Below are positions 3,387-46,984 of a stretch of 46,984 nt of DNA, in pieces. Each line of letters opens with the position of its first letter. Within the stretch, counting starts at the first letter, position 1. A program made the position numbers and the translations under genes. The stretch comes from a virus, in UHGV virus genome UHGV-0142121; one strand, given 5' to 3'. The notes beneath the pieces are model-generated. The model was given only the letters and a program-made list of their open reading frames with translations. It had not been told where the DNA came from and did no database searches.

Positions 3387-6300
3387 TTAAACCGCCTGCA
3401 ACCGCTTCAGTTCGTTGTATTGGCCATCTGATAGTTGCCACATATTGTCAGCCATAAACAGCCCGGCAACCGTCGCCTGTATCAACCGTGGCGGCATAGT
3501 CGCCAGTTGTGCCAGTTCTTCCGGCGTCAGTGCGGTTCTCAGCCATGCAAATGGCACCGGCATCGCAGCGATAGCCTCTTCAATCGTCGTCAGCGTTGCC
3601 TCAATAAATGCCGTCTCAGCAGATCCAGATTGGGATCTTACATCTATATTTGATCGGCAATCGAGATCCGGTTCTTCCGGTGCCCCCACATCCAGTTTCA
3701 TCTGGACAAACGACAGTGATGCCTCGGCGCGACGCGCCAGAATTCCGTGAATGAATTCCCAGGATTCGGGGACGATTGACCACACGTAACCGAGGCCCTG
3801 TGAACGCGGTAGGCGGCGTTTTTGAGTCGCGTAACCGAATGCCTCACAGATCTGTTTGAAAACCGTCTCGGGGCGTTTCTGGCGGCCTTTAGGGTTTATA
3901 TAGCCACCGAACCGCAGGACGTTGTTGAAACGGTCCGCGGTGGTTGGGTCCATAAGTTTGGCCATAGCTTCCGCCATACCTTCCTGGCTGGCTTCACCGG
4001 CGCCGGTATCTGGGTTAATACCGCAGGTGGAGAAATACTCCCTGGCGGCCTTACGGTGCAGCGATGCGTACGTACGCTGGGTTACTTCCATCACCGGGCG
4101 GCTTTGGACGGTGTAGCCGGTTATTCCTGGCTGCATGCGGTCGAACTGCGCATCAGCTGCTTCGCGGTTGAGCGCGGTGATCGTTACAAATTCGTTACGC
4201 GGCCCTTTGCGGAATTGGTAGGTGAACGTGAAAGCCTGCTGCTCACGGTCAATGCGTGCGGCGGTCATTTCATCCATCGTCATCAGTTCGGCCAGCGTCA
4301 GTTTCTTCTTCCCGCCATCGAGCAGGAATTTCAGAGATTCCGGGCTGACATCCAGCATCAACTCTTTTTCGATATCCCAGCGCGCCAGTTGCGCCTGCTC
4401 ATCTTCAGATAGTGATCGCTTGCCCATCAGTTCGTCGCGTTCGTCTTCGTCCGGGGTTTCCACTTCCATATGGCGCAGAACGGTCATATCCCAGACCCGC
4501 TCTTTCGATGCCTTACGCAGTTCTTTGCCGGTTTCGCTGGCCAGCGAGTCTTCGGCCAAGTGGCTGACGTTATAGCCATCGGCGTAGAGAATGCAGATCA
4601 GGTTGTTGGCGAAATCGTTTCTGGCCTGGGCCTCCATCGCGGCAACTTTAAATTTCATGCGGACATAGGTGGTGTCCGCCAGACCAAGGGAAAGGCGGTC
4701 GCCATCCAGGATGGCGTCGGTAAATTCTTCGTTTATCTCGGCGGTTTCCAGCAGTGCCTGCAGGAACCCACGGCGGATGTTGTCGGCGTTCTCTTCGCGT
4801 ACGCCAGGCAGCTTGTTCAGGCCGACCATAAATTCGGTGGCGGTCCTGTCGCGGCGCAGCATCTGAATGGCGTCGGACGGCACTACCTGGCCGCAGAAGC
4901 AGCCGAAATGGCGGGTGAAGTGCCGTTCTTCGATCGAGACGCCAGAACTGATAGCCGGGCTATAAATCAGGCCATCGTAGAGTTTAGCGCGCTGGTTCGG
5001 CGCGTCGGTAAACGCCACGACTTCCTGATCCGGCTTTGTGTCCTGGCTGACGTAAAGCCATTTCTTTTCTGGCCAGCGGTCGCGCAGCTGCAGCAGCAAC
5101 TGTTCGGCAAAATTGGTTGAGTCGGTGGCCAGCAGGAATTTTTCGCCAGCGGCCACAGCTTTCAATACTTCAACCATTATGCGGTCGGTATCGGTGTAAA
5201 GCACGCGGCGCGCTTCGCGCGTACCGTCGACTTTTTTGTACTTCACATCAACCGGCAGCTCGATGACGTGGATCTGTGTCCAGGTCGACAGGCCGGTTTG
5301 TTCGCGTCTGGCCAGCGCCAGTTCGCAGAGGTCTACCAGGATATCGCTGGCGTCCGCATCAACCAGCAGTGCGTGGTCATCGCTGTACGCGATGGAGTCG
5401 ATAAGGCGATTGAACACATCAACCGGGTGCGCCATCGCTTTACCGGAAAGCGTAGCGCGCAGGCCCTGGGTAGCTTCATCCAGGCCAAAGAAATCGTGCT
5501 TGCGCATCAGCGGTTGCCAGCAGCCCTTCACGATTGAATTGATACAGATCGTCAGCTTGCTGGCATACGGCGCCAGTTCCTGATAGCCGGGGTCCTGATA
5601 GTGCAGGATATCGCAATTCATGCGGCGGCCATCGTCGGCACGCGTCATCATGTCCCAGAGGCCACCGATTAGCGAAACGCGGTGCGCAACCGAAACGCCA
5701 CGCTGCGCGCTGTGCATCATAGGGCGCAGCAGGTGCTTGGATTTGCCCGACCCCATGCCGGCACGGACTATTACCGGGCCATTCAGCGCTTTGATGTAAT
5801 CCAGCACGTCTTTGGTCATGTGCGGTGTATCGAACCGCTTATAGGTGATATGATCGGGGCGTATTGCCGGGTTCGTTACGCGCTCGCTGAATGATCGGAA
5901 AGCCTGGGCCTTGTCGCATTTCTGTTTGAAGGCGCGTTTAACGCGGTTATACACGGTACCGTGCAGCGCTTTGTCGGCGCCGAGCTGGTCCAGCTTCATT
6001 TTTATCAGCGAGATCAGCTCCTGCGGGGATAACTTGGACGGGCATTGCATCATGCCGGCATCAATGCAGCGTACCAGCTGGCGTGAGAACGCGCGGCGAT
6101 CGGAAACCGGCGCAACGGCCAGAGACAGCATTTCAGCATCAAAGGAATTGCCTGGCAGCTGCAGGCGGTTCTGTTTTGAAAACAGCTGGCGGTTAGTTTC
6201 GGTGGCACCACGCGCCAGGTGGAGATCGTTGAAATCGCTTAATTCAGTTTCGCTGCTGTCGAAAATCGGGAATGTGCAACGGACCTGCGGGAATTTCTTC

Positions 6301-7376
6301 ATCACGTCGATGCCGACTCTTAACCCGGTATTGCCCTTTCCATTACGGGCCGACTTCTGGTCGTTATCCAGTGCGCACCAGATTTCCATGCCTGGGTACA
6401 GGCTGACCAGCTGATCAACAACCTTGATAACGTTATTTGCTGACACAGCCACGACAACAGCGTCGAAGCGCTTTTTGGCAACGGCAAACACACTGGCGCC
6501 AGTCGCGAAGCCTTCAACAACGCAGATCCTGGTTGCGCCGCGCAGCTGGCCAATGATGTGGCACGAACCAGCAAAGTCACCGGAATCAACAGCGCGGGTC
6601 TGCAGCTTGTCGTTTCTCTCGGTGATTCGCTGCCAGCCAACAATCGGGCCAACGCGAGATTCCCTGTCTTCCCGGCGGTCATCAATATGAGACAGCGGGA
6701 TAGCCATAACAGTTTGTTTTTTAACCGTTTTAGAATTGGGACCATGGTCCCACTGGGTTACGCGCCTGACGTTGCAGTATGAGAAAATGGAGCTGATACC
6801 TTTCTTCACCGCGTATGGCCATGAACCATCTTCTGCCGGTGCGTTGGCGAATGCGGTGGAGAACTGCAGGTATTCGTTCAGGTCAGCGTCGCGGCGCTGC
6901 GACTCCATAAACACAGAGATAGCCTGCTGGCGTTCACGTTCCTGGCGGCGTGCCTCAGCACGTTTACGCTGTTCCAGCTCGCGCGCGGACAGTGGGACCA
7001 CGGTCCCACCGTTCTGTTCTTTGTACCGGCGATATTCGGCTATAAGGAACTGGAAACCACTCCAGGAGCCAGCGTCAGAGCCTTTACATACGAAGTTAAC
7101 AAACGGGTACTTGATGCCTTCCTGCGAACACTCCATGCGGGAGTAGATCTCAACCTTACCTTTCAGCTTTGGCTCAGTAACGGCAGGACCATGATGGGCG
7201 TACTTTGTGAATTTTTCGGCGGCACCGCGAGAGGCAGAAAGTTGAATATCACTGGCGCATTTATGCCAGTCGATGCCGGCAGCGCTCGCAAGATCACTCA
7301 ATTCATTTGATGCCGCGTCAAGCAGCGAAAACGGGTCAGAGTTAAATTTGTGTTGAAAAAAATCCGTTAATTTCAT
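3387..7376 (-). CDS. repA: Replication protein RepA (primase-helicase), about 1329 aa from ATG at 7376; track ORF extends to a TTG at 7388
   Basis: Size and architecture match N15 RepA; Walker A GMGSGKSK; GGTGA ribosome-binding site before the 7376 ATG. Confidence 0.88.
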   Translation of the reverse strand: MKLTDFFQHKFNSDPFSLLDAASNELSDLASAAGIDWHKCASDIQLSASRGAAEKFTKYAHHGPAVTEPKLKGKVEIYSRMECSQEGIKYPFVNFVCKGSDAGSWSGFQFLIAEYRRYKEQNGGTVVPLSARELEQRKRAEARRQERERQQAISVFMESQRRDADLNEYLQFSTAFANAPAEDGSWPYAVKKGISSIFSYCNVRRVTQWDHGPNSKTVKKQTVMAIPLSHIDDRREDRESRVGPIVGWQRITERNDKLQTRAVDSGDFAGSCHIIGQLRGATRICVVEGFATGASVFAVAKKRFDAVVVAVSANNVIKVVDQLVSLYPGMEIWCALDNDQKSARNGKGNTGLRVGIDVMKKFPQVRCTFPIFDSSETELSDFNDLHLARGATETNRQLFSKQNRLQLPGNSFDAEMLSLAVAPVSDRRAFSRQLVRCIDAGMMQCPSKLSPQELISLIKMKLDQLGADKALHGTVYNRVKRAFKQKCDKAQAFRSFSERVTNPAIRPDHITYKRFDTPHMTKDVLDYIKALNGPVIVRAGMGSGKSKHLLRPMMHSAQRGVSVAHRVSLIGGLWDMMTRADDGRRMNCDILHYQDPGYQELAPYASKLTICINSIVKGCWQPLMRKHDFFGLDEATQGLRATLSGKAMAHPVDVFNRLIDSIAYSDDHALLVDADASDILVDLCELALARREQTGLSTWTQIHVIELPVDVKYKKVDGTREARRVLYTDTDRIMVEVLKAVAAGEKFLLATDSTNFAEQLLLQLRDRWPEKKWLYVSQDTKPDQEVVAFTDAPNQRAKLYDGLIYSPAISSGVSIEERHFTRHFGCFCGQVVPSDAIQMLRRDRTATEFMVGLNKLPGVREENADNIRRGFLQALLETAEINEEFTDAILDGDRLSLGLADTTYVRMKFKVAAMEAQARNDFANNLICILYADGYNVSHLAEDSLASETGKELRKASKERVWDMTVLRHMEVETPDEDERDELMGKRSLSEDEQAQLARWDIEKELMLDVSPESLKFLLDGGKKKLTLAELMTMDEMTAARIDREQQAFTFTYQFRKGPRNEFVTITALNREAADAQFDRMQPGITGYTVQSRPVMEVTQRTYASLHRKAAREYFSTCGINPDTGAGEASQEGMAEAMAKLMDPTTADRFNNVLRFGGYINPKGRQKRPETVFKQICEAFGYATQKRRLPRSQGLGYVWSIVPESWEFIHGILARRAEASLSFVQMKLDVGAPEEPDLDCRSNIDVRSQSGSAETAFIEATLTTIEEAIAAMPVPFAWLRTALTPEELAQLATMPPRLIQATVAGLFMADNMWQLSDGQYNELKRLQAV
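6736..6753. repeat. sopC-like palindrome TTGGGACCATGGTCCCAC inside repA coding sequence
   Basis: Near-perfect 18-bp inverted repeat matching the dispersed family; encodes TQWDHGPN in RepA. Confidence 0.7.
7002..7019. repeat. sopC-like palindrome GTGGGACCACGGTCCCAC inside repA coding sequence
   Basis: Core TGGGACCACGGTCCCA, identical to the F sopC inverted repeat as I recall it; encodes GGTVVPL in RepA. Confidence 0.7.
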
Positions 7377-7405
7377 TATTTCACCCAAAAAAAGACGCTG
7401 CGCAG

Positions 7406-15491: not shown

Positions 15492-15551
15492 AGATCCCCT
15501 TTCTCTATTTACACTGTATAAATAAACAGTATCATCAAGGAAAGGGGATCT
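15492..15551 (+). promoter_or_regulatory. 12-bp inverted repeat (AGATCCCCTTTC / GAAAGGGGATCT) whose 3' arm is the ribosome-binding site of the downstream gene; 36-nt loop carries a LexA box
   Basis: Perfect 12-bp complementarity; 3' arm ends 2 nt before GTG 15554. Confidence 0.5.
15512..15531. promoter_or_regulatory. LexA (SOS) box CACTGTATAAATAAACAGTA
   Basis: CTGT-N8-ACAG with AT-rich spacer, 17/20 to consensus TACTGTATATATATACAGTA; close to my recollection of the E. coli dinI box; overlaps a TATAAA -10-like element. Confidence 0.6.
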
Positions 15552-15553
15552 CG

Positions 15554-15790
15554 GTGAGAGTAGAAATACTTATTGATCAAGAAGCTAAGGTTTCAGAAAA
15601 AGTAATGGCCGCTCTTTCAGAGCAGGTAAAGCAGCGCCTTTCCCCTCAGTTCGAAAAATTCACATTGCGCATAGCAAAGAGCAGTAGCTCTGCGGTGCAG
15701 ATCACCGGCACTAAATCAGCAGATGAGCACAGTGCAGCTATGGACATCTTACAGAGCGTCTGGGAAGACGATAGCTGGCTGCCGGATTAA
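15554..15790 (+). CDS. DinI-like protein, 78 aa
   Basis: Aligns by eye with E. coli DinI (MRVEI..., ITGTKSADEHSAAMDILQSVWEDDSWL vs IGATKEDKQRISEILQETWESADDWF); preceded by a LexA box. Confidence 0.65.
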   Translation: MRVEILIDQEAKVSEKVMAALSEQVKQRLSPQFEKFTLRIAKSSSSAVQITGTKSADEHSAAMDILQSVWEDDSWLPD

Positions 15791-15817
15791 GTAGCTAGGT
15801 TGCAGGAGGTTGAATTG

Positions 15818-16081
15818 ATGACAGACGACACATGCAGTTCTGATTTACTCGCGTTGAAACTACAGCAGCTAAACGCATTGATTCAGGTTGTTCGTCGGAC
15901 GCTGGATAGCAGTGAAGGCAGCATTTATCTGAACGAGGCCATTAATTTAATGGGCGCTGCTGGAGAGATGACTCAAGACTGTGAAGCCATACGAAAGCGG
16001 ATAGATGTTGAGTTGTATCAGCAGAGCAGCAAGTACTACAGCCTGTATGGCTCTAGCTCTGATCGCCAGTCTGCCGGGTGA
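15818..16081 (+). CDS. Hypothetical protein, 87 aa, co-transcribed with the DinI-like gene (candidate antirepressor)
   Basis: AGGAGG ribosome-binding site 8 nt before ATG 15818; role inferred from SOS context only. Confidence 0.4.
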   Translation: MTDDTCSSDLLALKLQQLNALIQVVRRTLDSSEGSIYLNEAINLMGAAGEMTQDCEAIRKRIDVELYQQSSKYYSLYGSSSDRQSAG

Positions 16082-16419: not shown

Positions 16420-17481
16420 ATGGAAAACACTGTAAATATAAACAGTGCCGTTCTTGTGCGTGCTGATACTCTGGCATACATAAAAACTCTCCCGGACAAC
16501 AGTATCGATGCCATCATCACCGACCCGCCCTACTACAAAGTAAAGGCGGCATCGTGGGATAACCAATGGCCGACGGCTGTTGATTATCTGGCATGGCTCG
16601 ATGAGTGCTTGGCGGAATTCTGGCGGGTGCTGAAGCCGGCTGGCTCTCTGTACGTATTCTGCGGTCCTAAGCTGTCATCTGACACAGAACTGCTGATAGG
16701 CGAGCGGTTCAACGTGCTAAACCATATCATCTGGGCCAAACCGAGCGGTCGTTGGAACGGCTGCCGGAAAGAGGATTTGAGATCGTATTTCCCGGCGACT
16801 GAGCACATTGTGTTTGCTGAACATTATGGCTCTGAGGGATTCGCAAAAGGTAATGCCGGGTATGCGACGAAGTGCCGGGAACTGAAAAGCCAGGTCTTTG
16901 CGCCGTTGATTGAATACTTCCGAACTACCCGGCAGCGCTTGGGCATTTCGGCTGCAGAGATCAACGCGGCGACGGGAACCCAAATGTGCAGCCACTGGTT
17001 TAGTTCAAGCCAATGGCAACTGCCCAGCGAAAAACAATACCAGGCTCTTCAGGCGTTGTTTAACCGGGTAGCGAAAGAGAAGCAAACCTCTGGCTTACTG
17101 TCCGACCACGCCGCGCTGGAAGCGGAATACAACGAGTTATCGGAACAGTATTCAGAACTGGTAAAGCAGTACAGCGATTTGCGTGAGCAGTACGAAAACC
17201 TGCGGCGCCCATTCAGGGTAACAAAGGATGTACCGCATACGAACGTCTGGACGTACCCACCAGTTCAGCATTATCCCGGTAAACATCCATGTGAAAAGCC
17301 GATAGAGATGATGATCGATATTATCTCGGCCAGTACTCGACCTGGCGACCTGGTAGCCGACTTCTTCATGGGTTCGGGTGCAACGGTTAAAGCAGCTATG
17401 CAGCTGGGCCGGCGTGCTATCGGCGTTGAGCTGGAAGAGGAGCGCTTCTTACAGACTGTCTCAGAAATTACAGAACTATAA
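16420..17481 (+). CDS. DNA methyltransferase, 353 aa, first gene of the late operon
   Basis: DPPY catalytic motif (IITDPPYY) near the N-terminus and AdoMet-binding FFMGSGAT near the C-terminus. Confidence 0.75.
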   Translation: MENTVNINSAVLVRADTLAYIKTLPDNSIDAIITDPPYYKVKAASWDNQWPTAVDYLAWLDECLAEFWRVLKPAGSLYVFCGPKLSSDTELLIGERFNVLNHIIWAKPSGRWNGCRKEDLRSYFPATEHIVFAEHYGSEGFAKGNAGYATKCRELKSQVFAPLIEYFRTTRQRLGISAAEINAATGTQMCSHWFSSSQWQLPSEKQYQALQALFNRVAKEKQTSGLLSDHAALEAEYNELSEQYSELVKQYSDLREQYENLRRPFRVTKDVPHTNVWTYPPVQHYPGKHPCEKPIEMMIDIISASTRPGDLVADFFMGSGATVKAAMQLGRRAIGVELEEERFLQTVSEITEL

Positions 17482-36866: not shown

Positions 36867-39800
36867 ATGGAAATTACAGGCGCAAAAGGTGGCGGCGGCA
36901 GCGGAAGTAGCGATAAAGGCGAGAATCGCGGTACCGAGATCGCTTCAGTTGCTTACATGAAGATATTACTGGCGCTGACCGAAGGCGAAGCCGCCGGCGG
37001 ATTCTCAGGCAAGGATATTTATCTCGATGGCACACCGCTGCTGGATGATTCCGGGAATGCAAACTTCCCAGGCGTTACCTGGGAATGGCGTAGCGGGACT
37101 GTCGACCAGCCATATATTTCCGGCTTCCCTGCTGTTGAAAATGAAGTGGCCGTTTCTACGGAGCTGAAATACGGGACGCCGTGGGTTAAGTCGATTAATA
37201 ACACGCAGCTCTCAGCCGTTCGTCTGCGCCTGAAGTTCCCTAATGGCCTGTATGAACTGCGAGACTCAGGTGGGAAGAGCGGTTATACCGTTGAGTTTGC
37301 CATTGATATCTCAACTGATGGCAGTTCCTATGTCGAATACGGGCGGGATACCGCAAGTGGTATTGCTAATAATGGCTATGAGCGTAGCTATCGAATTGAG
37401 CTGCCACCGGCACAGGCTGGATGGCAAATTCGTGTAAGACGCCTTACACCAAACGCCAATGATGCACGGCACGCCGATACATCCCGAATCGAATCGATAA
37501 CCGATATCGTTGATGCCAAGCTGCGGTATCCCCACACCTCGCTGCTGTTCGTCCAGTTCGATTCTCAGTTGTTCGATGGTCGTACGCCGACAGTAACGAT
37601 AAAAATGAAGGGGATCATTATTCGCGTTCCATCGAACTATGACCCGATCAACAGGACGTATAGCGGTACGTGGGACGGGACGTTTAAATGGGCATGGACG
37701 AACAACCCGGCCTGGATTTTTTACGACATCGTGACGAATGCCCGGTACGGCCTGGGTCGCCGCATAACGACAAACCTCGTTGATAAGTGGACGCTCTATC
37801 AGATAGCTCAGTACTGCGATGCGAAGGTTTCTGACGGCGCAGGAGGCACAGAAGCGCGTCATCTTTGCGACCTGTACATTTCACAGAGAACCGACGCCTG
37901 GACGGTCCTGATGGATTTGGCGGCGATTTTCAGGGGGATGATCAGCTGGTCGAATAATCTGCTTTCGCTTGATGCCGATATGCCGCGCGAGCTGGACCCG
38001 GACTTTGTCTTCAATAAGTCCAATATTGTCGGTTCGTTCAACTTCTCCAGCTCATCCGAACGTACCAACTATTCTGCGGCGATAGTGACTTACAGCAACC
38101 CGAACAACGGCTACAACGATGATCAGGCCAGCGTTCACGTACCTGAAGTATCTTCGCGATTTGGTTTCAATACGATGGAAATGACTGCCGTCGGCTGCAC
38201 GCGCGAGAGTGAGGCGCAGCGCCGCGGATTGTGGGGCATCGAGACAAACCGCGATGATAATGCGGTGGAGTTCAAAACGGGCATGGAAGGCCGTATTCCG
38301 AGGGTAGGCAAAGTGATCGGCGTGAATAACGCACCACTGGCCGGACGGGCGAACGGTGGCCGTGTAGCTGCAGCTGCAGGTACAAAAATCACGCTGGACA
38401 GGAATACCGTTGCCGTTCCCGGTAATCGGCTGATCATCAACCTGCCGACGGGAAAGGCCGAAGGACGAACGATTAAGTCAGTATCTGGCCGCGCGGTCAC
38501 TGTGGAATCTGCATACAGCGTATTACCGAACGCTGAGTCGGCGTGGGTAATTGACCAGCAGGATCTGGCCATCCAGTTATTCAGGGTTCGCCGTGTGGCC
38601 ATCGGGAGTGATGACCTGGTGACAATATCCGGGTTGCCCTATAACCCGAACAAATTCGCGAAAATTGATGATGGCGCGATTGTCGAAGACCGTCCTGTGA
38701 CCGTGGTCCCACCAGGTAGCCAGGCTGTACCAACGAACATTGAAATCACCAGTGAATACCGAATTGTTCAGGGGATAGGTATTAACACCCTGGTCGCAAC
38801 ATGGGACCCGGTGGTAAACGCCATCGCCTACGAGGTGCAATGGCGCCAGAACAGCGGCGACTGGATTAATGGAGGCAGGACAGGAAATACCCGAATTGAG
38901 GTCGATGGTATTTATGCCGGCCGTTATGTCGTTCGTGTTCGGGCCATCAACGCGATGGATGTTGCCTCGGTATGGGCAGTATCAAAGGAAGTCCAGCTGG
39001 ATGGCAAAATCGGGAAGCCACCCGTTCCTGTCAATTTGAGAACAACCCCGATGCTATGGGGTATTCGTATCGACTGGTCTATTCCCGCAGGAGCTGAGGA
39101 CTCGCTCTATACGGAGCTGCAGTATGCGCAGGAACGCGACGGCAACACGGCTCTGTTGCTGAGTAATGTTCCTTACCCGCAGTCCACATATTCACAGATG
39201 GGGCTTCGTGCCGGGCAGGAGTTCTGGTATCGAGCGCGCCTTATCGACAAAATAGGCAACCGCTCTGACTGGACTGACTGGGAGAGAGGGCTTTCCAATG
39301 ATAATACGGATGAGTATCTGGATAGTATTGGTACCGGTTTTCTTACATCCGCCGACGGTGACCGCCTGACAAGCGATATTGATACCGACCTCGAAGCCGC
39401 ATTACAGAACGCGCTGGCCAACCACGCAACGGCTGAACATCAGTGGGCGCAGTATGGTGAAGTCCGCGCGGATATTCTGGTGGTCAAAACGACCATTGCT
39501 GATGTTGATAAAGCGATGGCTGAAATGACCACCCAGGTACAGGCGCAGATTAAAGATGTCACCGCCTCGCTTGAGGATAAGCTCACCGCCACCGTTGATG
39601 CTACAAGTGCTACGGCCATTCATACCCTGAAAGCCGGAGTGCGCATCAACGGTATTTTTTACAGTGCCGGGATATCGATTGCGGTACTGGCCGAAGCGGG
39701 TAAGCCGGTGGTCACTCGTGTCGGGTTTAACGCCAACCAGTTCGTCCTGATGAGTGGCAGCGGTGATACGCAGTATTCACCGTTTGCTGTTATCAATGGT

Positions 39801-40085
39801 CAGGTGTTTATCAGTTCTGGCTTCATCCAGGATGGCACTATTATCAATACAAAAATTGGTAATTACATTCAGTCTAACACCTGGGATGGTACCGGTAATG
39901 TTGGTTGGCATATCAACAAATCAGGCTATGCGACATTCAATGATGTCACTGTCCGTGGTGCAATTTATGCCAACAACGGCAATTTTGCATTTAACGGCAC
40001 CAATAACACTGTCGTCATCAACGGAAATGGGCTGACTGTTAATTTGTCTGGTGGCGGCAAAGTTGTCGTCGGGAGGTGGTCATAA
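36867..40085 (+). CDS. Host specificity / central tail fibre protein J, 1072 aa
   Basis: Size, position after K and I, lambda J-like N-terminus. Confidence 0.85.
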   Translation: MEITGAKGGGGSGSSDKGENRGTEIASVAYMKILLALTEGEAAGGFSGKDIYLDGTPLLDDSGNANFPGVTWEWRSGTVDQPYISGFPAVENEVAVSTELKYGTPWVKSINNTQLSAVRLRLKFPNGLYELRDSGGKSGYTVEFAIDISTDGSSYVEYGRDTASGIANNGYERSYRIELPPAQAGWQIRVRRLTPNANDARHADTSRIESITDIVDAKLRYPHTSLLFVQFDSQLFDGRTPTVTIKMKGIIIRVPSNYDPINRTYSGTWDGTFKWAWTNNPAWIFYDIVTNARYGLGRRITTNLVDKWTLYQIAQYCDAKVSDGAGGTEARHLCDLYISQRTDAWTVLMDLAAIFRGMISWSNNLLSLDADMPRELDPDFVFNKSNIVGSFNFSSSSERTNYSAAIVTYSNPNNGYNDDQASVHVPEVSSRFGFNTMEMTAVGCTRESEAQRRGLWGIETNRDDNAVEFKTGMEGRIPRVGKVIGVNNAPLAGRANGGRVAAAAGTKITLDRNTVAVPGNRLIINLPTGKAEGRTIKSVSGRAVTVESAYSVLPNAESAWVIDQQDLAIQLFRVRRVAIGSDDLVTISGLPYNPNKFAKIDDGAIVEDRPVTVVPPGSQAVPTNIEITSEYRIVQGIGINTLVATWDPVVNAIAYEVQWRQNSGDWINGGRTGNTRIEVDGIYAGRYVVRVRAINAMDVASVWAVSKEVQLDGKIGKPPVPVNLRTTPMLWGIRIDWSIPAGAEDSLYTELQYAQERDGNTALLLSNVPYPQSTYSQMGLRAGQEFWYRARLIDKIGNRSDWTDWERGLSNDNTDEYLDSIGTGFLTSADGDRLTSDIDTDLEAALQNALANHATAEHQWAQYGEVRADILVVKTTIADVDKAMAEMTTQVQAQIKDVTASLEDKLTATVDATSATAIHTLKAGVRINGIFYSAGISIAVLAEAGKPVVTRVGFNANQFVLMSGSGDTQYSPFAVINGQVFISSGFIQDGTIINTKIGNYIQSNTWDGTGNVGWHINKSGYATFNDVTVRGAIYANNGNFAFNGTNNTVVINGNGLTVNLSGGGKVVVGRWS
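38696..38711. repeat. Degenerate sopC-like site TGTGACCGTGGTCCCA inside J (one mismatch)
   Basis: 15 of 16 match to the palindrome core. Confidence 0.3.
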
Positions 40086-41029
40086 TGCCGGAAGGTATTC
40101 TGATTGATTACAACGATGGCCGTCCGATGATGGCAATTACTGCGGGGCTTCGCGCCCCCAGTTTTTGCACAACGTTCTCGGGCTGGTCATCCCAGTCAAT
40201 GCAGTACCCGGTCAATACACCGCTGGTTCCAGGTTCACAGGCTATCGTGGTGCCCACCAATCCCATTTACATCTATTCCTTTGCTGAATTTGATGTGGCC
40301 ATTATGACGAGCGTCACCCGAAACGGGGACGCCGGGGTCATCATTGGTGCAGAGACCATCGGGGGTAAGGCCCTCACTCCGGACTGGTCTGGTTATGTTA
40401 TGGAGCTGCTGCCTGCGGCGACGTATAACGAAGGATTACTGGTTTCAAACTCGACTGACTTCACCGCCATATCTAATCAGGCTGCGCTGATGACCTGCGC
40501 TTATTCCGGACGTATTACGGTTAGCGGCAGCGCGCCGCTTCCGGTGAGCGGTATTCCTTTCGGCAAATGGGATAACCCGAATGTGTCGGTGGGGTTTGAT
40601 GGCACCAGTATCATCGTGCGCGACATTTCCTATACAGGGCGGGACGACGTGGCCGGAACGGCGACGATAGACCTGGTGATATTCAATCAGACCGCACCTG
40701 TCGGCGGCGACGGTATCACGATGACCAACGCTGCAGGCCAGGTCACGTTCTCCACGCTGAAACGCCCCTTTGTCTATGACCGACAAATCCAGATCACCGA
40801 TGCCTTCCAGGATATTGGCGGTGGGTTCTGCCAGATAGTCTATACCGGCGTTCAGGTACGAATGATAGGTGGATGGGGAAATATCAGAACCAAAGGCGTC
40901 GTCATGTCAGGCGGTAGTGTCAGGTCAGCCTACAACAAAGTGTTTGCGGACCGCAATTCTGGTGCATGGGATATGACCCGTAACAGAAATATCGCCATGC
41001 CCATTCTAATTCTTCCGAATATGTACTGA
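40085..41029 (+). CDS. Hypothetical tail-associated protein, 314 aa
   Basis: GGGAGG ribosome-binding site; TAATG overlap with J stop; between J and tail fibre. Confidence 0.4.
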   Translation: MPEGILIDYNDGRPMMAITAGLRAPSFCTTFSGWSSQSMQYPVNTPLVPGSQAIVVPTNPIYIYSFAEFDVAIMTSVTRNGDAGVIIGAETIGGKALTPDWSGYVMELLPAATYNEGLLVSNSTDFTAISNQAALMTCAYSGRITVSGSAPLPVSGIPFGKWDNPNVSVGFDGTSIIVRDISYTGRDDVAGTATIDLVIFNQTAPVGGDGITMTNAAGQVTFSTLKRPFVYDRQIQITDAFQDIGGGFCQIVYTGVQVRMIGGWGNIRTKGVVMSGGSVRSAYNKVFADRNSGAWDMTRNRNIAMPILILPNMY

Positions 41030-41038
41030 GGAAAAACT

Positions 41039-42397
41039 ATGTCAGCAGGAACCTTAACCCTGACGAATAACTCTGCTGCGGTCGCTGGTAGCGGGACCGC
41101 GTTTACTACCGAGGTGGCGGCCGGAGATTTTATTGTTGTCACTGTCGGCGGCGTTCCCTATACACTCCCGATTAAATCAGTGGAAAGCGGTACAGCATTG
41201 ACGCTGGTCAGCAATTTCACCGGGCCAACACAGTCTGGCGCTGCCTGGTTTGCTGTTCCGCGCGTGGCGCTTAATATGGTTACCGCGGCGCTGGTGACTC
41301 AAAGCGCGGAGGCACTGCGCGGACTGAACTACGATAAGCAGAACTGGCAGCAGTTTTTTACTGCCGATGGTGATGTAACGATTGCGCTTCCTGATACCAG
41401 CCAGACAACGGGGCCATCAGCGAAAAAGTTAATTAAAAGTGTTAACGATAAAGCAGATAAAACAGCGCTTGATGAGTACGCCAAAAAGGGCAGCAACAGC
41501 GATATCACGAGTCTTTCCGGCCTAACTACTGCCCTAAGTGTTAAGCAGGGCGGGACAGGAGGTGACAATAAGACTGGCGCATGTAAAGGTATAGGTGCCA
41601 TGAATGCGGAATTGTCGGTGCCTAATGCCTCGGCGATAGCCCTGCCATCTGGATCGTTCTTCCTGGGTGATGGTCAGGAGGCTGGAGGGGCAGGTAAGCC
41701 ATTCACCTATTCGATGATTCTGCAATTATCTGCTGGTGGCGCAAGTCCTACAGGAGACTGGGTGCAGGTGGCATATCAGATGTTTGGTACCGGCGCTCCG
41801 AAATACCGAACACGTGTTGATTCTCCACCATCTCTGTCTAACTGGTTCGACTTCCTTGTCCGTGGAGTAAATACTACGGTGGACTCCAATGGATTCTACA
41901 AAACTTCATCGCCGATTATTAAAATTTGGGGGGATGGGACCTCTGAATTAAACGATGAGTCCGAAGGGGCAACCGTTGTCCGAATGGATACAGGGGTTTA
42001 TAAAGTATCTGGCGTCATGGGGTTTAACTCCAGTCCGGAGTGGGGAGGCGTGGAGGGCGGATATTCAGTACCGCAAAACGGCAACGGGCTGCCTCTGTTG
42101 TGGCTGGATTACGAAATAGCATCTGATGGTGATATTACAGTCCGAACGTATCATCGTACACACAGTAATGCGCCAGAATTTGCCCGAAACCTGATTGGTA
42201 TTAAACATGACGATGGTTCATTTACCGAAACGGTTAAAGATGGCGACCCGGTGGATATCCCGGCTGGTCGCTGGATAGATCTGCGCGTTGAGATGCCCCA
42301 CAACAGCATCTGGAATATTAAACAGATCGAGGCACAGGAAGCCAGAGAAAAAGCTGAGCGCGAGCGCCAGGAAAATCAGCAGGATGCCCAGTTGTAA
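41039..42397 (+). CDS. Tail fibre protein, 452 aa
   Basis: Position after J; Gly/Ser/Thr-rich with KQGGTGG motif; C-terminal coiled-coil tail. Confidence 0.6.
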   Translation: MSAGTLTLTNNSAAVAGSGTAFTTEVAAGDFIVVTVGGVPYTLPIKSVESGTALTLVSNFTGPTQSGAAWFAVPRVALNMVTAALVTQSAEALRGLNYDKQNWQQFFTADGDVTIALPDTSQTTGPSAKKLIKSVNDKADKTALDEYAKKGSNSDITSLSGLTTALSVKQGGTGGDNKTGACKGIGAMNAELSVPNASAIALPSGSFFLGDGQEAGGAGKPFTYSMILQLSAGGASPTGDWVQVAYQMFGTGAPKYRTRVDSPPSLSNWFDFLVRGVNTTVDSNGFYKTSSPIIKIWGDGTSELNDESEGATVVRMDTGVYKVSGVMGFNSSPEWGGVEGGYSVPQNGNGLPLLWLDYEIASDGDITVRTYHRTHSNAPEFARNLIGIKHDDGSFTETVKDGDPVDIPAGRWIDLRVEMPHNSIWNIKQIEAQEAREKAERERQENQQDAQL

Positions 42398-42532
42398 AAA
42401 TGGATAGTTGCCGCAACCACACCGTATGCAAGAGCATGATTGCGGCCGACTGGCGAACGTTCGATAGTGCGAGTATTGAATGATTGCCAGTCACGGCGGA
42501 TTGTACTTAAGCAATATGACGGTTCAAGGCGT

Positions 42533-42775
42533 TTAATCTGAAACCAGCCACATATCAGCCTCTTCAAACATTTCCTGAACAGCTCGGCTTATCTGTTCCT
42601 TCTCGTGCTTGCTGGCGTCAGTGTTGATCGCCGGCAATGTCATCATCGGTTTAACCCGGACATCAGCATCGGGGAAGATCCGGTGAACCCTCTTAGTCAA
42701 CTCGCCCAGAATGATATCTTTTGCACCGGGCAGACCATCAAAATTCCTTTTGTCATAAACGAGTTCCACGAACAT
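42533..42775 (-). CDS. DinI-like protein, 80 aa
   Basis: Aligns by eye with E. coli DinI (ELTKRVHRIFPD..., KHEKEQISRAVQEMFEEADMWLVSD vs KEDKQRISEILQETWESADDWFVSE). Confidence 0.7.
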   Translation of the reverse strand: MFVELVYDKRNFDGLPGAKDIILGELTKRVHRIFPDADVRVKPMMTLPAINTDASKHEKEQISRAVQEMFEEADMWLVSD

Positions 42776-42790
42776 TGCTCATTGCCTCTT

Positions 42791-42810
42791 TACTGGATGG
42801 ATATACAGTA
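42791..42810. promoter_or_regulatory. LexA-box-like element TACTGGATGGATATACAGTA within the divergent dinI-like / umuD'-like promoter
   Basis: CTGG-N8-ACAG, 17/20 to consensus; sits between -35-like TTTACT (42789) and -10-like TATACT (42812) of the rightward promoter. Confidence 0.5.
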
Positions 42811-42853
42811 TTTATACTGTGTTTTTATCCGGTGTTCAAGAGAGGGTATAAAC

Positions 42854-43243
42854 ATGGGCTTTCCTTCACCTGCGGCAGATTATGTTGAAACACGAATCTC
42901 CCTCGATCAGCAACTAATCAGCCAGCCCGCAGCGACTTATTTCATGCGGGCATCGCGTTCACATTTCAGGGAAGGAATACTCCAGGGAGCGTTGCTTGTT
43001 GTGGATGCATCACTTACTGCCTGCGATGGTTCACTACTGATATGTGCAATAGACGGGGAATTCAGGATCAAGCGATACCGAACTCACCCTCAGCCCCACC
43101 TGATAAATCTGGAAAACGGAAGAAGGGAGGCGCTGCCAGTAGATGATGGCGGTTACAGTTCTGCACCCGCTATATTCGGGGTGATCACGTACATCATTAA
43201 TGATGCCAGGAACGCGGAGTTTGATGACTGCCCGGTGATGTGA
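42854..43243 (+). CDS. UmuD'-like protein, 129 aa, starts at the position equivalent to the UmuD self-cleavage site
   Basis: MGFPSPAADYVETRISLDQQLISQPAATYF matches E. coli UmuD from Gly25 onward; the nucleophile-Ser region (GDSM in UmuD) is divergent; no umuC downstream. Confidence 0.7.
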   Translation: MGFPSPAADYVETRISLDQQLISQPAATYFMRASRSHFREGILQGALLVVDASLTACDGSLLICAIDGEFRIKRYRTHPQPHLINLENGRREALPVDDGGYSSAPAIFGVITYIINDARNAEFDDCPVM

Positions 43244-43340
43244 GAATCCACAGAAAACATCATATGCAAATTCCGTCAGAAGGAGATTTAGCGAAAAAAC
43301 ATTCTCCAAAACTCATTTGTAACTACATGATTTTATAGAG

Positions 43341-43380
43341 TTTGGCATGCAGTTTACTTGAAGGTAAAAAGCATGCCAAA
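43341..43380. repeat. 10-bp perfect inverted repeat TTTGGCATGC / GCATGCCAAA, 20-bp spacer, between convergent umuD'-like and sopB
   Basis: Seen directly; no adjacent T-run. Confidence 0.3.
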
Positions 43381-43438
43381 TTAAGCGTTAACTTATTGAA
43401 TGATATAAATTAACTATCTATGTCGCTAACCTTCTTGT

Positions 43439-44620
43439 TCAAAGGACGTAGCGCTTTGCTATTTCGTTACCTATTTTTTGAATCCGCTGGTCTTCAGTGG
43501 TTTCATCATTTAGTACGGTTCTGGCGAACGGGATTAGGGCCAGAATTTCGTTGGCGGGGATATCGTATTTCAAGCCTGTCGCCGCGGCGCGGATGTAGTT
43601 GGTCACATCATTAATTTCTAAAAATGCCTCATCCACTACCTTACCAACCGATTTTTGCTGTTCGGCCTGGTGAGCTTCCAGTAGTTCTTCAATCCTCTGT
43701 ACTAACGCTGGCGATACGTTGCTAAGTTGGAAGGATACAGAATCCCCCTTGTACTTCGCTTTCATCCCTTTACCAAACAGGCGCTCACGCACTGCAGGTT
43801 TTACTGGCTTTTGCGCTACCTGGTGCAGCTGGTCAAGAATGTCATCAGTTTCGAGCTGTTCACCAGCGCGCTTGCGCTTGGCCAGATGCTGCGCAAACGC
43901 AAACATTGCATCTTCATTCTCGGCATAGACTTTTGCCAGTGCCTCACCAGCTCTGGCGCTCAGCTCGTTAGGGTTACGGAAAAGGCCAATGATTTCGCGT
44001 GGTAGCTCTGCCGTCTTCATGCAGCGGACGATAATTTTTCGGGAGATATTCTCCGCTTCGGCCAGCTTACTGACGGTACCACCGAACTCATTAGCCAGGC
44101 GGCGAGCATAGCGTTTTCCGCGTTCGTAAGAGCTGGTCTGCCGGTAGTCGTTCCCGATCTGTGATAGCCAGGCCATTTGTTCGTCGTCCAGCTCGCCGAC
44201 GAGAACGCGGTATTCAGAGCTGGTGTAAATGGCTGTCTGGCGGCGGCGGCTACCGTCGGCCACTTCAATGATGCCAGAAATTTTGCGGCCAAAAGCTGGG
44301 TTTTGTTGCCCGGATGCGAGGAATGATGGGATCAGGTCATCCAGGGCGTCTTTTGTCAGTAGAGCCTGGTCCCGCTCGTTGCCGCCCCATACCATGGTCG
44401 CCTTTTCCACCATGTTTGCATCGACGGTTTCCAGCTTAAACGACACATCCCGCCCACAGACCGGAAGGGTGATATGGTTCCCGGTCATCCCGCGGACGCG
44501 TTCGCTTAGGTTTGCCACCGCCGGCGCCGCTGGTTTATGCGCTTCATCATGTCGTGGGACCGCGGTCACAGTGTCCAGATTAATTTGCGGAGCGTTTTTC
44601 ATTACAGGCGCGCGTTTCAT
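43439..44620 (-). CDS. sopB: Partition protein SopB (ParB family), about 393 aa from ATG 44620
   Basis: N-terminal 230 aa closely match my recollection of F SopB (ITLPVCGRDV, NERDQ, DALDDLIPSF, RVLVGELDDEQMA, AENISRKII); start overlaps sopA stop (ATGA). Confidence 0.85.
   Translation of the reverse strand: MKRAPVMKNAPQINLDTVTAVPRHDEAHKPAAPAVANLSERVRGMTGNHITLPVCGRDVSFKLETVDANMVEKATMVWGGNERDQALLTKDALDDLIPSFLASGQQNPAFGRKISGIIEVADGSRRRQTAIYTSSEYRVLVGELDDEQMAWLSQIGNDYRQTSSYERGKRYARRLANEFGGTVSKLAEAENISRKIIVRCMKTAELPREIIGLFRNPNELSARAGEALAKVYAENEDAMFAFAQHLAKRKRAGEQLETDDILDQLHQVAQKPVKPAVRERLFGKGMKAKYKGDSVSFQLSNVSPALVQRIEELLEAHQAEQQKSVGKVVDEAFLEINDVTNYIRAAATGLKYDIPANEILALIPFARTVLNDETTEDQRIQKIGNEIAKRYVL
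44555..44570. repeat. Degenerate sopC-like site TGGGACCGCGGTCACA inside sopB 5' coding region (one mismatch)
   Basis: 15 of 16 match to the palindrome core. Confidence 0.3.
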
Positions 44621-45828
44621 TTGTTGTTCTCCCAGCGAGTAGCAATCAGGCGGTCGTAAATTTCCCGGCAAACAGGTTCCCAGATAGCGACAGCATTGCG
44701 CCATGCTGTAGGGGTGCTGCGTTGGTTTGCAGCCTGCTCAAACACGGTGCGCATGCGTACCTGGCCCTTACCTACTTCGTCGGTTACGCGGACAACCTCC
44801 TTCAGCACCATCCCGCCCCAGGCGTTGCGGATCTGTTCATCCATCCAGGCAGATTGGTTGCCGACGGCCGTGCTGTATTTAGTTACCAGAACGCGGACAT
44901 CAGGTTCAAAGCCACCAAGGTCCACGTTGGCCATCAGGTCGCGAAGCATTGTGAAGAACTGAAGAGAGGAAACGTAGTCATACAGTTCAGCTGGTGTAGG
45001 TACAACGATCACATCTGCTGCGCATACGACGTTTATTGTGCCGATGCCGAGGTTTGGTGCGCTATCAATGACAATCAGGTCGTAGCTATCCCAGACAGAC
45101 TCGATAGCGGCGCGCAGAAGCAGGTGAGATGCCACCGGCAAGCGGCCTTCTTTCTCCAGTACCTCGATCTCTGATTCGATGCGGTGAATGGCCAGGCAGG
45201 ACGGGATGATATCGAGGTTCGGCCAGCAGGTAGGCTTAATCGCGTATTCAGCGTTATCACGTTCGCCCAGGTAGTACGGCAGCAGCGTATCGTCTGCGTG
45301 GATATGCAGATCAGGGACGTAGCCGTGGTACAAGCTGGCGGTTGCTTGCGGGTCAGTCGCATCAATCAGCAGAACGCGAAGGCCCTGCAGTGCAGCCCAT
45401 TGAGCCATATGTACGCTGGTCGATGTTTTGTATGCGCCACCTTTATGCGCGGCAATAGCCAACACAACAGGCGATTGGCCTTCCGGACGAGACGGGCGGG
45501 TACCAAAGTGATCGCGCATAGAGTTGATTTGCTCGATGGTATAGCCGGCACGTTGTGGAACGCGACCGCGAGTCACCATATCAGCCGGCGGCAGTCGCCC
45601 ACCATCTTCTGCATTGCGAATAGATTGCGGTGTAACACCGATCAGTTCTGCCGCTTCAGTAATGCCCCAGCGACGAGTGATGGCGCGAGACTCTGGGCTA
45701 TCATCACCAAATTGAGCCTGCGCGATAGCCATTGTCATGGCATGGCCACGAGAAATCAGTTCATCCAAACGCGATTTTAAATTCACTTTCGTACTCTCCG
45801 GTAACTTTGCGTAAAAATAGTAAAACAC
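44617..45828 (-). CDS. sopA: Partition ATPase SopA (ParA family); probable start at GTG 45786 (389 aa) rather than the track start at 45828
   Basis: Near-collinear with my recollection of F SopA (AHKGGxYKTS Walker A, IIPSCLA, VIDSAPNLGIGTINVVCAADV, EPVCxEIxDRLI); GGAGAG ribosome-binding site before the 45786 GTG; CTTTGC-like motifs upstream. Confidence 0.85.
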   Translation of the reverse strand: MFYYFYAKLPESTKVNLKSRLDELISRGHAMTMAIAQAQFGDDSPESRAITRRWGITEAAELIGVTPQSIRNAEDGGRLPPADMVTRGRVPQRAGYTIEQINSMRDHFGTRPSRPEGQSPVVLAIAAHKGGAYKTSTSVHMAQWAALQGLRVLLIDATDPQATASLYHGYVPDLHIHADDTLLPYYLGERDNAEYAIKPTCWPNLDIIPSCLAIHRIESEIEVLEKEGRLPVASHLLLRAAIESVWDSYDLIVIDSAPNLGIGTINVVCAADVIVVPTPAELYDYVSSLQFFTMLRDLMANVDLGGFEPDVRVLVTKYSTAVGNQSAWMDEQIRNAWGGMVLKEVVRVTDEVGKGQVRMRTVFEQAANQRSTPTAWRNAVAIWEPVCREIYDRLIATRWENNK

Positions 45829-45924
45829 TATAAAAGACGCAAAGCAACATTAAAAAAGCAAATTTGTTTATGTGACGCATTAAAGAGAACTATCAACACT
45901 AAAAAGTTTATAGGACAGAGCTAG

Positions 45925-45964
45925 CCGTACGTAGGCCGTACAAACCACCCGTACAACGTACGGG
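45925..45964. repeat. CCGTAC direct repeats (45925, 45936, 45949) ending in palindrome CCCGTACAACGTACGGG, immediately upstream of the GNAT gene
   Basis: Three direct hexamers at roughly one-helical-turn spacing plus an inverted copy. Confidence 0.5.
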
Positions 45965-45965
45965 T

Positions 45966-46448
45966 TTGATTGACAGCGGGGATGACGTAATCAATAAGTT
46001 CATCCCGCAACTAAAGCGCCAGTGTGGCCGTGACAACATCAATGCATTGCTGTTGCTTGATGGGGATAAAAAACTATTCGGCTTTGCCACGGCCACCCTT
46101 TATCAGTTAGGACGGGATGGTATTCCGGAAGATACATATCCGTATGCACTACCACCCGCAATAGCGGTGATGAAAATCCCAATGATTGCCATCGATAAAC
46201 AACTACAAAGGCAAGGTTGGGGGCACGATTTATTGCGTGCAATCCTTGATTACAGCGTTGAGAGCGCTGATTTGGTGAAAGGCATTAAAGGTGTTTATCT
46301 TGATGCAAAAGTAGACGCTCGCTCGTTTTATGAGAGCTTTGAATTCAAAGCTCTCAGCGAAACGGTTAGCGAGAATGGCACTATCCCAATGCTCCTCCCT
46401 ATGGATGTCCTCCGGGAGAGCCGGAAAAACTGGGAGCAGTCCGCATAG
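45966..46448 (+). CDS. GNAT-family acetyltransferase-like protein, 160 aa, TTG start
   Basis: Acetyl-CoA motif Q-x-x-G-x-G (QRQGWGHDLL); no in-frame ATG in the N-terminal 70 codons; no antitoxin-sized partner ORF adjacent. Confidence 0.45.
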   Translation: MIDSGDDVINKFIPQLKRQCGRDNINALLLLDGDKKLFGFATATLYQLGRDGIPEDTYPYALPPAIAVMKIPMIAIDKQLQRQGWGHDLLRAILDYSVESADLVKGIKGVYLDAKVDARSFYESFEFKALSETVSENGTIPMLLPMDVLRESRKNWEQSA

Positions 46449-46478
46449 GCGTGGACGTAAAAGCCAGAACTCAATGAA

Positions 46479-46508
46479 AGAGCCACCGCGAGGTGGCTCT
46501 TTCTCTTC
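46479..46508 (+). terminator. Hairpin after the GNAT gene (terminator-like)
   Basis: 9-bp stem AGAGCCACC/GGTGGCTCT with GCGA loop, followed by TTCTCTTC. Confidence 0.4.
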
Positions 46509-46746
46509 TGAAGGGCGGCATATGACATGCAGCGCGAAGCGCTGTGGAAGCATAAAAAGGGGTTTTATAGAGGCAAAAGAGCCAAACTGGAAGATGGTTC
46601 AATAAACGTCAACACCTAACATAATGTTTTTCAATGATAATATAAGGAATTTCCGTTTAACTGTTGGAGAACAACAAGCATCATAACACGTGATTTTTTT
46701 ACTATTTTTTATTTTCATTCGATGAATGAATGAAAGCAAATAACAA

Positions 46747-46916
46747 CGTAACAAAATACGAATTTGAATTACAATAATTGAACACACTACCACGCCAATA
46801 AAATGACCAACCATAAAACCAATAGAACCTAATCAAACAAAATCATCGTAACACAATCTACAATTAATCATCGTAACAACATCCGAATGAATTAGCAGGG
46901 TGTATCATATCGTAAC
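46747..46916. promoter_or_regulatory. Telomere-flanking repeat array, right arm: ATCGTAAC at 46845, 46870, 46909 and CGTAAC at 46747, in AT-rich non-coding DNA
   Basis: Reverse complement of the GTTACGAT repeats next to the left telomere. Confidence 0.5.
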
Positions 46917-46930
46917 AATTATTGAATGAT

Positions 46931-46984
46931 TAACAGAACACATTATTAAATATACGCGCGTATATTTAATAATGTGTTCTGTTA
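46931..46984. repeat. Hairpin telomere, right end: 54-nt perfect palindrome (apex between 46957 and 46958)
   Basis: Reverse complement of 46931-46957 equals 46958-46984; shares the 40-nt core with the left-end palindrome, outer 7 nt differ. Confidence 0.85.

Follow-up and report, generated by a model that had tools for sequence, protein, structure and literature searches.

We consider it very likely that the locus at positions 42533-43243 of the DNA analysed here (46,984 nt, hereafter the window) is a dinI/humD cargo ('moron') module under SOS regulation, of a kind known from temperate phages of enterobacteria, lying in its usual tail-fibre/sopBA slot in an N15-like plasmid-prophage. This type of module is already annotated in phiKO2, P1 and N15 and is captured by a curated NCBI family model. 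An earlier note on this DNA had described a divergent pair of dinI-like and umuD'-like genes with a 78-nt intergenic region; its coordinates proved exact, and the two products matched Pfam DinI and NCBIfam HumD, respectively. Its interpretation was also supported, as the locus matches the established LexA-controlled divergent DinI-like/HumD-type pair without umuC. The features of the locus and its immediate surroundings are as follows.

42398-43243: shared mosaic module, from the tail-fibre stop to the humD stop.
42533-42775, minus strand: dinI-like gene, 80 aa, an open reading frame of the DinI family, 'MsgA/phiKO2 gp22' type.
42776-42853: divergent control region of 78 nt, the spacer between the dinI and humD reading frames.
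42789-42818, plus strand: putative sigma-70 humD promoter, from a consensus scan with 9 of 12 matches.
42791-42810: LexA box 1, TACTGGATGGATATACAGTA, matching 17 of 20 consensus positions, both 5-nt arms perfect.
42811-42839, minus strand: putative dinI promoter, read directly from the sequence.
42815-42834: degenerate LexA box 2, TACTGTGTTTTTATCCGGTG, with right arm CGG for CAG.
42840-42846, plus strand: humD Shine-Dalgarno sequence GAGAGGG, 7 nt before the ATG.
42854-43243, plus strand: humD, 129 aa, an open reading frame matching NCBIfam HumD and encoding a pre-processed UmuD' homologue without a cognate umuC.
43341-43380: hairpin in the gap where humD and sopB converge, with 17-nt arms, a 6-nt loop and a fold z-score of -2.9.

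The window is a complete N15-like linear plasmid-prophage that was assembled through its hairpin telomeres, because its ends are palindromic and a scaffold continues beyond them as the reverse complement. Positions 1-54 and 46931-46984 are perfect 27+27-nt palindromes with the centre ACGCGCGT. Metagenome scaffold L090 (93,930 bp) matches 38854-46984 at 100% identity and from there on reads as the reverse complement. The true ends of the element are the palindrome centres. A Pfam scan identified lambda-like tail genes as well as genes for replication and partition, which are listed here with the SopB-binding sites.

213-2114, plus strand: protelomerase.
3387-7388, minus strand: Toprim replication protein, 1333 aa.
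43439-44704, minus strand: SopB.
44617-45828, minus strand: SopA.
2125, 6737, 6993, 10193, 16170, 19646, 22482, 28197, 34720, 38696 and 44555: SopB-binding 16-mers.

The 16-mers are copies of the SopB-binding palindrome of the F/N15 type, TGGGACCNNGGTCCCA; 11 copies are scattered over the genome, seven of them exact, with 0.09 expected by chance. We take them to be a dispersed centromere as in N15, here with more copies. When phage and plasmid collections were searched by megablast with the locus and both window halves, no close whole-element relative was found; the best partial matches reached at most ~77% identity, and the module alone matched well. Citrobacter is the likely host, judging from the database names of the closest proteins (95-97% identical). 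The gap between humD and sopB is AT-rich (32% GC), and neither strand of its hairpin carries a U-run. The hairpin also encloses a minus-strand sequence that resembles a promoter. It is possible, with some uncertainty, that this hairpin acts as a bidirectional terminator, and putative terminators are annotated at the equivalent position in N15 and phiKO2. An Rfam search at a permissive threshold gave no match within 42200-43600.

LexA boxes were assessed by arm matches, shuffles and conservation. The LexA-like box that the earlier note had placed in the rightward promoter is indeed there: box 1 is the sole exact TACTG-N10-CAGTA in the 47 kb (0.04 expected by chance, with one present in 4 of 100 shuffles). 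The window holds three strong LexA-type boxes in all, box 1 among them. The humD promoter is predicted to consist of a -35 TTTACT (42789-42794) and a -10 TATACT (42813-42818) separated by an 18-nt spacer, such that box 1 overlaps the -35 and extends across the spacer to the -10. Beyond what had been described, the intergenic region also holds the degenerate second box and a leftward promoter with an overlapping -10. This predicted dinI promoter has a -35 TTGAAC (42839-42834), a 17-nt spacer and a -10 TATAAA (42816-42811), and it was not listed by the consensus scan owing to the A at the end of its -10. The two -10 hexamers overlap by four bases with a 2-nt offset. Box 1 would cover the predicted dinI transcription start and box 2 the dinI promoter spacer. 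The two transcripts are predicted to begin near 42825 (rightward) and near 42804 (leftward). The right arm of box 2 is CGG in most relatives and an intact CAG in about a dozen, e.g. TACTGTGTTTTTATCCAGTA.

Conservation of the control region was followed in the relatives of the locus. Among 54 distinct relatives the mean per-position conservation of this region was 93%, compared with a flanking synonymous divergence of 0.2-0.4; over the 54 distinct spacer versions the LexA arms and the -10 overlap were ~99% conserved and the box centre 94%. CTG-N10-CAG occurs within 90 nt of dinI in all 75 relatives that have a complete dinI, and the variation among these boxes sits in the central 10 nt rather than in the arms. 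Equivalent LexA boxes lie upstream of humD in phiKO2, P1 and N15, and upstream of E. coli umuD and dinI. A near-consensus CTG-N10-CAG overlapping a predicted promoter, as found here, would place the pair in the LexA (SOS) regulon. In Salmonella, prophage dinI homologues preceded by boxes of this kind respond to DNA damage with a 14- to 23-fold induction (PMC8072944; PMC3121763). By analogy with these genes, and with the LexA sites annotated in P1 and phiKO2, LexA would bind the box of the window and DNA damage would induce the locus.

The leftward protein matched Pfam DinI PF06183 (73.7 bits, E 1.5e-20, gathering cutoff 24.2) and PHROG 189, 'RecA filament binding protein DinI'. Its identity to phiKO2 gp22 is 76%. 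In the alignment with DinI suggested by the earlier note, the family assignment stood, with 37% identity to the E. coli protein in addition to the Pfam match, but the score fell below the cutoff of the chromosomal DinI equivalog NF007893 (41.6 bits vs 111). From these comparisons the protein is a DinI-family member of the phage 'MsgA/gp22' type and not an orthologue of chromosomal DinI. We also compared the RecA-contact residues of E. coli DinI (L13, L21, E24, E69, W71, D76, W77 and F78) with those of the leftward protein. Seven of the eight are identical (L13, E24, E69 and W77) or conservatively changed (L21I, W71F and F78L), and the remaining one is not conserved (D76M).

Another SOS locus is situated at 15512-16081, where a LexA box, CACTGTATAAATAAACAGTA (15512-15531), is followed by two genes.

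15554-15790: second DinI-family gene, Pfam DinI match of 57.4 bits.
15818-16081: antirepressor homologue, 87 aa, PHROG 10889, 55% identical to PY54 AntA.

This arrangement looks like a LexA-controlled antirepressor switch of the Gifsy/N15 type for prophage induction. In the Gifsy dinI-antirepressor operons, as for N15 AntC and 186 Tum, a phage dinI homologue lies directly behind the LexA box (PMC3121763). The locus at 42533-43243 differs from a Gifsy-type switch in carrying humD instead of an antirepressor, making it a different module. The leftward gene had been called a second DinI paralogue. A second DinI-family gene does exist in the window, but the word paralogue overstates the relationship. 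With 22% identity between the two proteins and no significant BLASTP match (E = 1.0), the genes are separate acquisitions in different modules rather than recent paralogues. The third strong LexA-type box, CACTGTAAATATAAACAGTG, lies at 16428-16447 in codons 3-9 of an N6/N4 DNA methyltransferase gene (16420-17481).

The rightward protein matched the NCBIfam 'HumD family' equivalog NF051876 with 222.5 bits (cutoff 120) over positions 1-129 of the 129-position profile, whereas its score with the UmuD model PRK10276 was under the cutoff (92 bits vs 110). Its match to Pfam Peptidase_S24 scored 36.2 bits. It is 72.9% identical to P1 HumD, 68% to phiKO2 gp23 and 67% to N15 gp26, and 42-43% identical to E. 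coli UmuD, for which the sequence of the K-12 record served as reference. The alignment with UmuD and P1 HumD by which the earlier note proposed to judge the protein thus shows that it is UmuD-related and of the HumD family. A sequence match to the solved UmuD' structure (PDB 1UMU, E 1e-23) fixes its fold as that of UmuD'. The HumD family comprises 486 database clusters.

The protein had been described as a UmuD homologue starting at the residue equivalent to the autocleavage site. This agrees with the alignment, in which HumD Gly2 lies opposite UmuD Gly25, which follows the Cys24/Gly25 cleavage bond and is where UmuD' begins. The HumD N-terminus, M-GFPSPAADYVE, corresponds to UmuD G25-E35. 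An MGFPSP start is present in 98 of 120 HumD family representatives, and the humD start codon is unchanged in relatives with an extra upstream gene or with unrelated upstream DNA. An in-frame ATG at 42797, inside the LexA box, would extend the reading frame by 42797-42853 to 148 aa; several database entries adopt this reading, and one cluster with it has 1430 members. No Shine-Dalgarno sequence precedes the 42797 ATG, and the predicted -10 is located downstream of it. Given this lack and the position of the ATG inside the LexA box, we regard the 148-aa versions as probably a start-codon annotation artefact, one that obscures the pre-processed nature of HumD. Some database entries name the protein 'LexA family transcriptional regulator', a name that we rejected because the protein contains the S24 domain only and no DNA-binding domain.

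The absence of a umuC partner, also claimed earlier, was borne out by a tblastn search of the whole window with E. coli UmuC, which found no umuC (best E 0.47). Nor is there a umuDC-type operon: humD is followed on its 3' side by the hairpin and then by convergent sopB, with no co-transcribed Y-family polymerase gene. UmuD touches the RecA groove through Y52, D91, E93 and F94 (PMC9926225), and all four residues are retained in HumD, as Y29, D67, E69 and F70.

Among the closest known counterparts is phiKO2, a Klebsiella phage that is the same type of element, an N15-like linear plasmid-prophage. Its annotated order matches that of the window: J, terminator, DinI on the minus strand, lexA site, UmuD-like gene on the plus strand, terminator, sopB, sopA, telRL and protelomerase. 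Genes gp22 and gp23 of phiKO2 are likewise divergent, with a spacer of ~77-78 nt, one LexA box and overlapping -10 hexamers. Two differences were noted. The box 1 of phiKO2 is nearer to consensus (TACTGTATGCATATACAGTA) and is followed by only a half-site, and the module of the window is just 69% identical to that of phiKO2 at the nucleotide level, as opposed to 90-97% to modules of integrated Citrobacter, Salmonella and E. coli prophages.

P1 shares with the window a HumD of 129 aa with an MGFPSP start, the lack of umuC and a LexA box common to a divergent gene. The P1 record states that humD 'functionally complements E. coli UmuD'' and annotates the LexA site for both lxr and humD. P1 differs from the window in that this divergent partner, lxr, is not of the DinI family and in that its downstream neighbour is phd-doc. 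P1 HumD is reportedly the experimentally characterised member of the family, a UmuD' substitute in SOS mutagenesis according to what McLenigan et al. are said to have described in 1999. The N15 gp26 product and the UmuD-like protein of HK639 occupy the same slot after the tail-fibre gene, and in N15 a LexA-type box precedes gp26 by 34 nt. Unlike the window, N15 and HK639 have no divergent dinI, and their humD-type gene is co-oriented with the preceding tail-fibre gene. A minus-strand DinI gene, a LexA box and a plus-strand humD lie beside the tail-fibre gene in HK140 (gp26-gp28) and in about half of the IMG/VR relatives, and modules of this type sit at the prophage end beside attP. They differ by an extra 79-aa gene (PHROG 3893) between the promoter and humD, which the window lacks.

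The E. coli umuDC and dinI genes resemble the locus in their control by LexA boxes, TACTGTATATAAAAACAGTA for umuD and ACCTGTATAAATAACCAGTA for dinI. In E. coli, by contrast, umuD is transcribed together with umuC, and its 139-aa product is a precursor requiring RecA-stimulated cleavage. HumD has no N-terminal arm and no umuC partner, its nucleophile motif is remodelled, and it has a C-terminal tail.

These likenesses suggest how the module would work. In the lysogen, host LexA would bind box 1, possibly aided by the weak box 2, and would thereby shut two face-to-face promoters with overlapping -10 hexamers. DNA damage would lead to RecA filaments and LexA self-cleavage, such that dinI and humD would both be transcribed. 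As HumD would be made without the 24-residue N-terminal arm, it should need no RecA-mediated cleavage. By analogy with P1 HumD it would dimerise and bind RecA filaments together with host UmuC, a partner that we assume the host to supply, and it could provide UmuD' function in translesion synthesis, as shown for the P1 protein. The DinI-like protein would bind in the groove of the RecA filament, stabilise filaments and compete there with LexA and UmuD. Both products would therefore act on the RecA/Pol V axis of the host. LexA binding, the biochemical activities of the two proteins and a benefit to the phage are what we infer from these counterparts; the effects on RecA, mutagenesis and repressor cleavage proposed in the earlier note may likewise occur.

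Three other explanations were weighed, all of them less likely than the SOS cargo-module account. According to the one that survives best, HumD and the DinI-like protein mainly damp RecA* signalling and have little role in lesion bypass: their occupancy of the RecA groove would slow cleavage of LexA, UmuD or CI-type repressors, and would tune the induction of the element itself or suppress competing prophages. The lytic switch of the element appears to be under LexA control through the dinI-antirepressor operon at 15512-16081, so RecA* activity would set the fate of the element, which fits this explanation. We nevertheless consider it unlikely, as the statement in the P1 record that HumD complements UmuD' points to a positive role together with UmuC.

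A bolder reading makes DinI and HumD an obligate functional couple with which the prophage takes over the host mutagenesis checkpoint. The DinI-like protein would block the RecA-dependent maturation of UmuD in the host, and HumD, as a UmuD' that needs no cleavage, would load host UmuC or act as a trans-peptidase or a RecA-groove decoy. If this were true, the conserved features specific to HumD would encode an activity absent from UmuD', and UmuC would be loaded on the phage's own schedule. We think it quite improbable.

The nucleophile-Ser region of HumD had been called divergent. It is so in that the GDSM motif is replaced, but the region is not clearly inactivated, with Ser or Thr at the aligned position and the Lys kept. 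GDSM has become R-S-H-F, with one residue (Gly) deleted. UmuD Lys97 is retained as HumD Lys73, and Lys occupies this position in 119 of 120-121 family sequences. At the position that MAFFT aligned to Ser60 (HumD 36), 91 of 120 cluster representatives have Ser and 26 have Thr, and position 37 is His in 111 of the 120. The two alignments differ here: Ser60 is paired with HumD Ser36 by MAFFT and with His37 by HMMER. Where UmuD has S-M-I-D-G-G, the HumD family has the motif [S/T]-H-[F/Y]-R-E-G. The family also has a conserved acidic C-terminal tail of ~10 residues, NDARxxEFDDCPV (HumD residues 117-129; 43202-43240), which is absent from UmuD. Conservation of the motif and of the acidic tail equals that of the protein core. 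The catalytic region of HumD is thus divergent, remodelled and conserved rather than decayed, and it is not clearly inactivated. HumD lacks the cleavage-site arm and the G-[DN]-S-M motif of active S24 self-cleaving peptidases, the Lys being present. Self-cleavage is impossible by construction, with the S24 fold retained.

These features bear on a second explanation: HumD would have kept Ser/Thr-Lys peptidase activity and would use it in trans on a partner such as host UmuD in a heterodimer or another S24 substrate. Cleavage of UmuD is intermolecular (PMC9926225), and Lys73 (119 of 121) and a Ser or Thr at the MAFFT-aligned Ser60 position (117 of 121) are nearly invariant. However, the Gly of G-D-S-M is deleted, the aligned residue is Thr in 21% of the family, and the HMMER alignment, by placing His37 at Ser60, makes the nucleophile itself ambiguous. 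Retention of the fold alone would conserve the active-site geometry. A trans-acting peptidase is therefore very unlikely in our estimation. The preferred account, that of an SOS cargo module whose HumD stands in for UmuD', has a weak point here as well: simple UmuD' mimicry does not explain the HumD-specific motif and the acidic tail, which counts against it. The degeneracy of box 2 in this element is another point on that side.

The extent of the module was apparent from ~90 related loci, in which similarity starts at ~42230-42555 (the tail-fibre stop is at 42397) and ends at 43239-43247. One of them, L005, matches from 42397 at 96.8%. Past the end of the module the flanks are unrelated, being chromosome, integrase or sopB. 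Many prophages of Citrobacter, Salmonella and E. coli carry the 0.85-kb module beside tail-fibre genes at 90-97% identity. Exact-protein look-ups showed that the 80-aa/78-nt/129-aa unit adjoins lambda-type or P2-type fibre genes on one side and bacterial chromosome, other cargo or sopBA on the other. Its internal geometry is fixed across eight genomic contexts. Because similarity stops at the humD stop codon and the neighbours vary, the dinI/humD unit is best described as a mobile cargo module of ~0.85 kb.

Among 80 IMG/VR loci encoding HumD at at least 92% identity, a divergent dinI was present in 78. The spacer measured 76-79 nt, as in the window, in 40 of the 80 and ~320 nt in 35, the longer version being due to the inserted 79-aa gene as in HK140; three loci carry a deletion. 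The 79-aa gene (MMPRRSDIEIAWYASIQ..., PHROG 3893), which is absent from the window, forms a two-gene operon with humD, being located between it and the LexA-controlled promoter in these 35 loci. Examples are found in L007, L008, L012, L019 and others (about 2180-2500) and in HK140 as gp27 (L086 1262-1501). With Gifsy as a precedent, its product could likewise be a small regulator made with SOS timing. In L073, L075 and L077 the promoter region has been deleted, which leaves the 5' end of dinI joined to the 79-aa gene. In the Salmonella phage BTP1 (L088) and related P22-like phages, humD is split in two pieces.

Median dN/dS was 0.055 for humD (80 comparisons) and 0.081 for dinI (71 comparisons), and both genes are under strong purifying selection. 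That the locus is a decayed umuDC remnant, with a 5'-truncated umuD and umuC lost, or else neutral hitch-hiking cargo is hardly credible: the missing umuC, the position of the module at a recombination-prone genome end and the damaged relatives (the split humD of BTP1 and the dinI-fusing deletion of L073, L075 and L077) would fit, but these dN/dS values contradict a pseudogene or remnant, as do the precise, conserved start codon with its own Shine-Dalgarno sequence and promoter, the number of database clusters and a control region conserved beyond the level of synonymous sites.

The locus adds a further example to a catalogued type of phage cargo module, and its analysis mainly confirms annotation; P1 HumD is said to have been described 25 years ago. 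It raises the question why temperate phages carry a pre-activated UmuD' and why a DinI homologue so often lies divergently beside it, controlled through the same LexA box. Two points, neither of them a new discovery, make this question of the purpose of the cargo testable: the geometry of the module is conserved across lambda-like phages, phages with P2-like fibres and telomere phages, and the element has a separate LexA/antirepressor induction switch.
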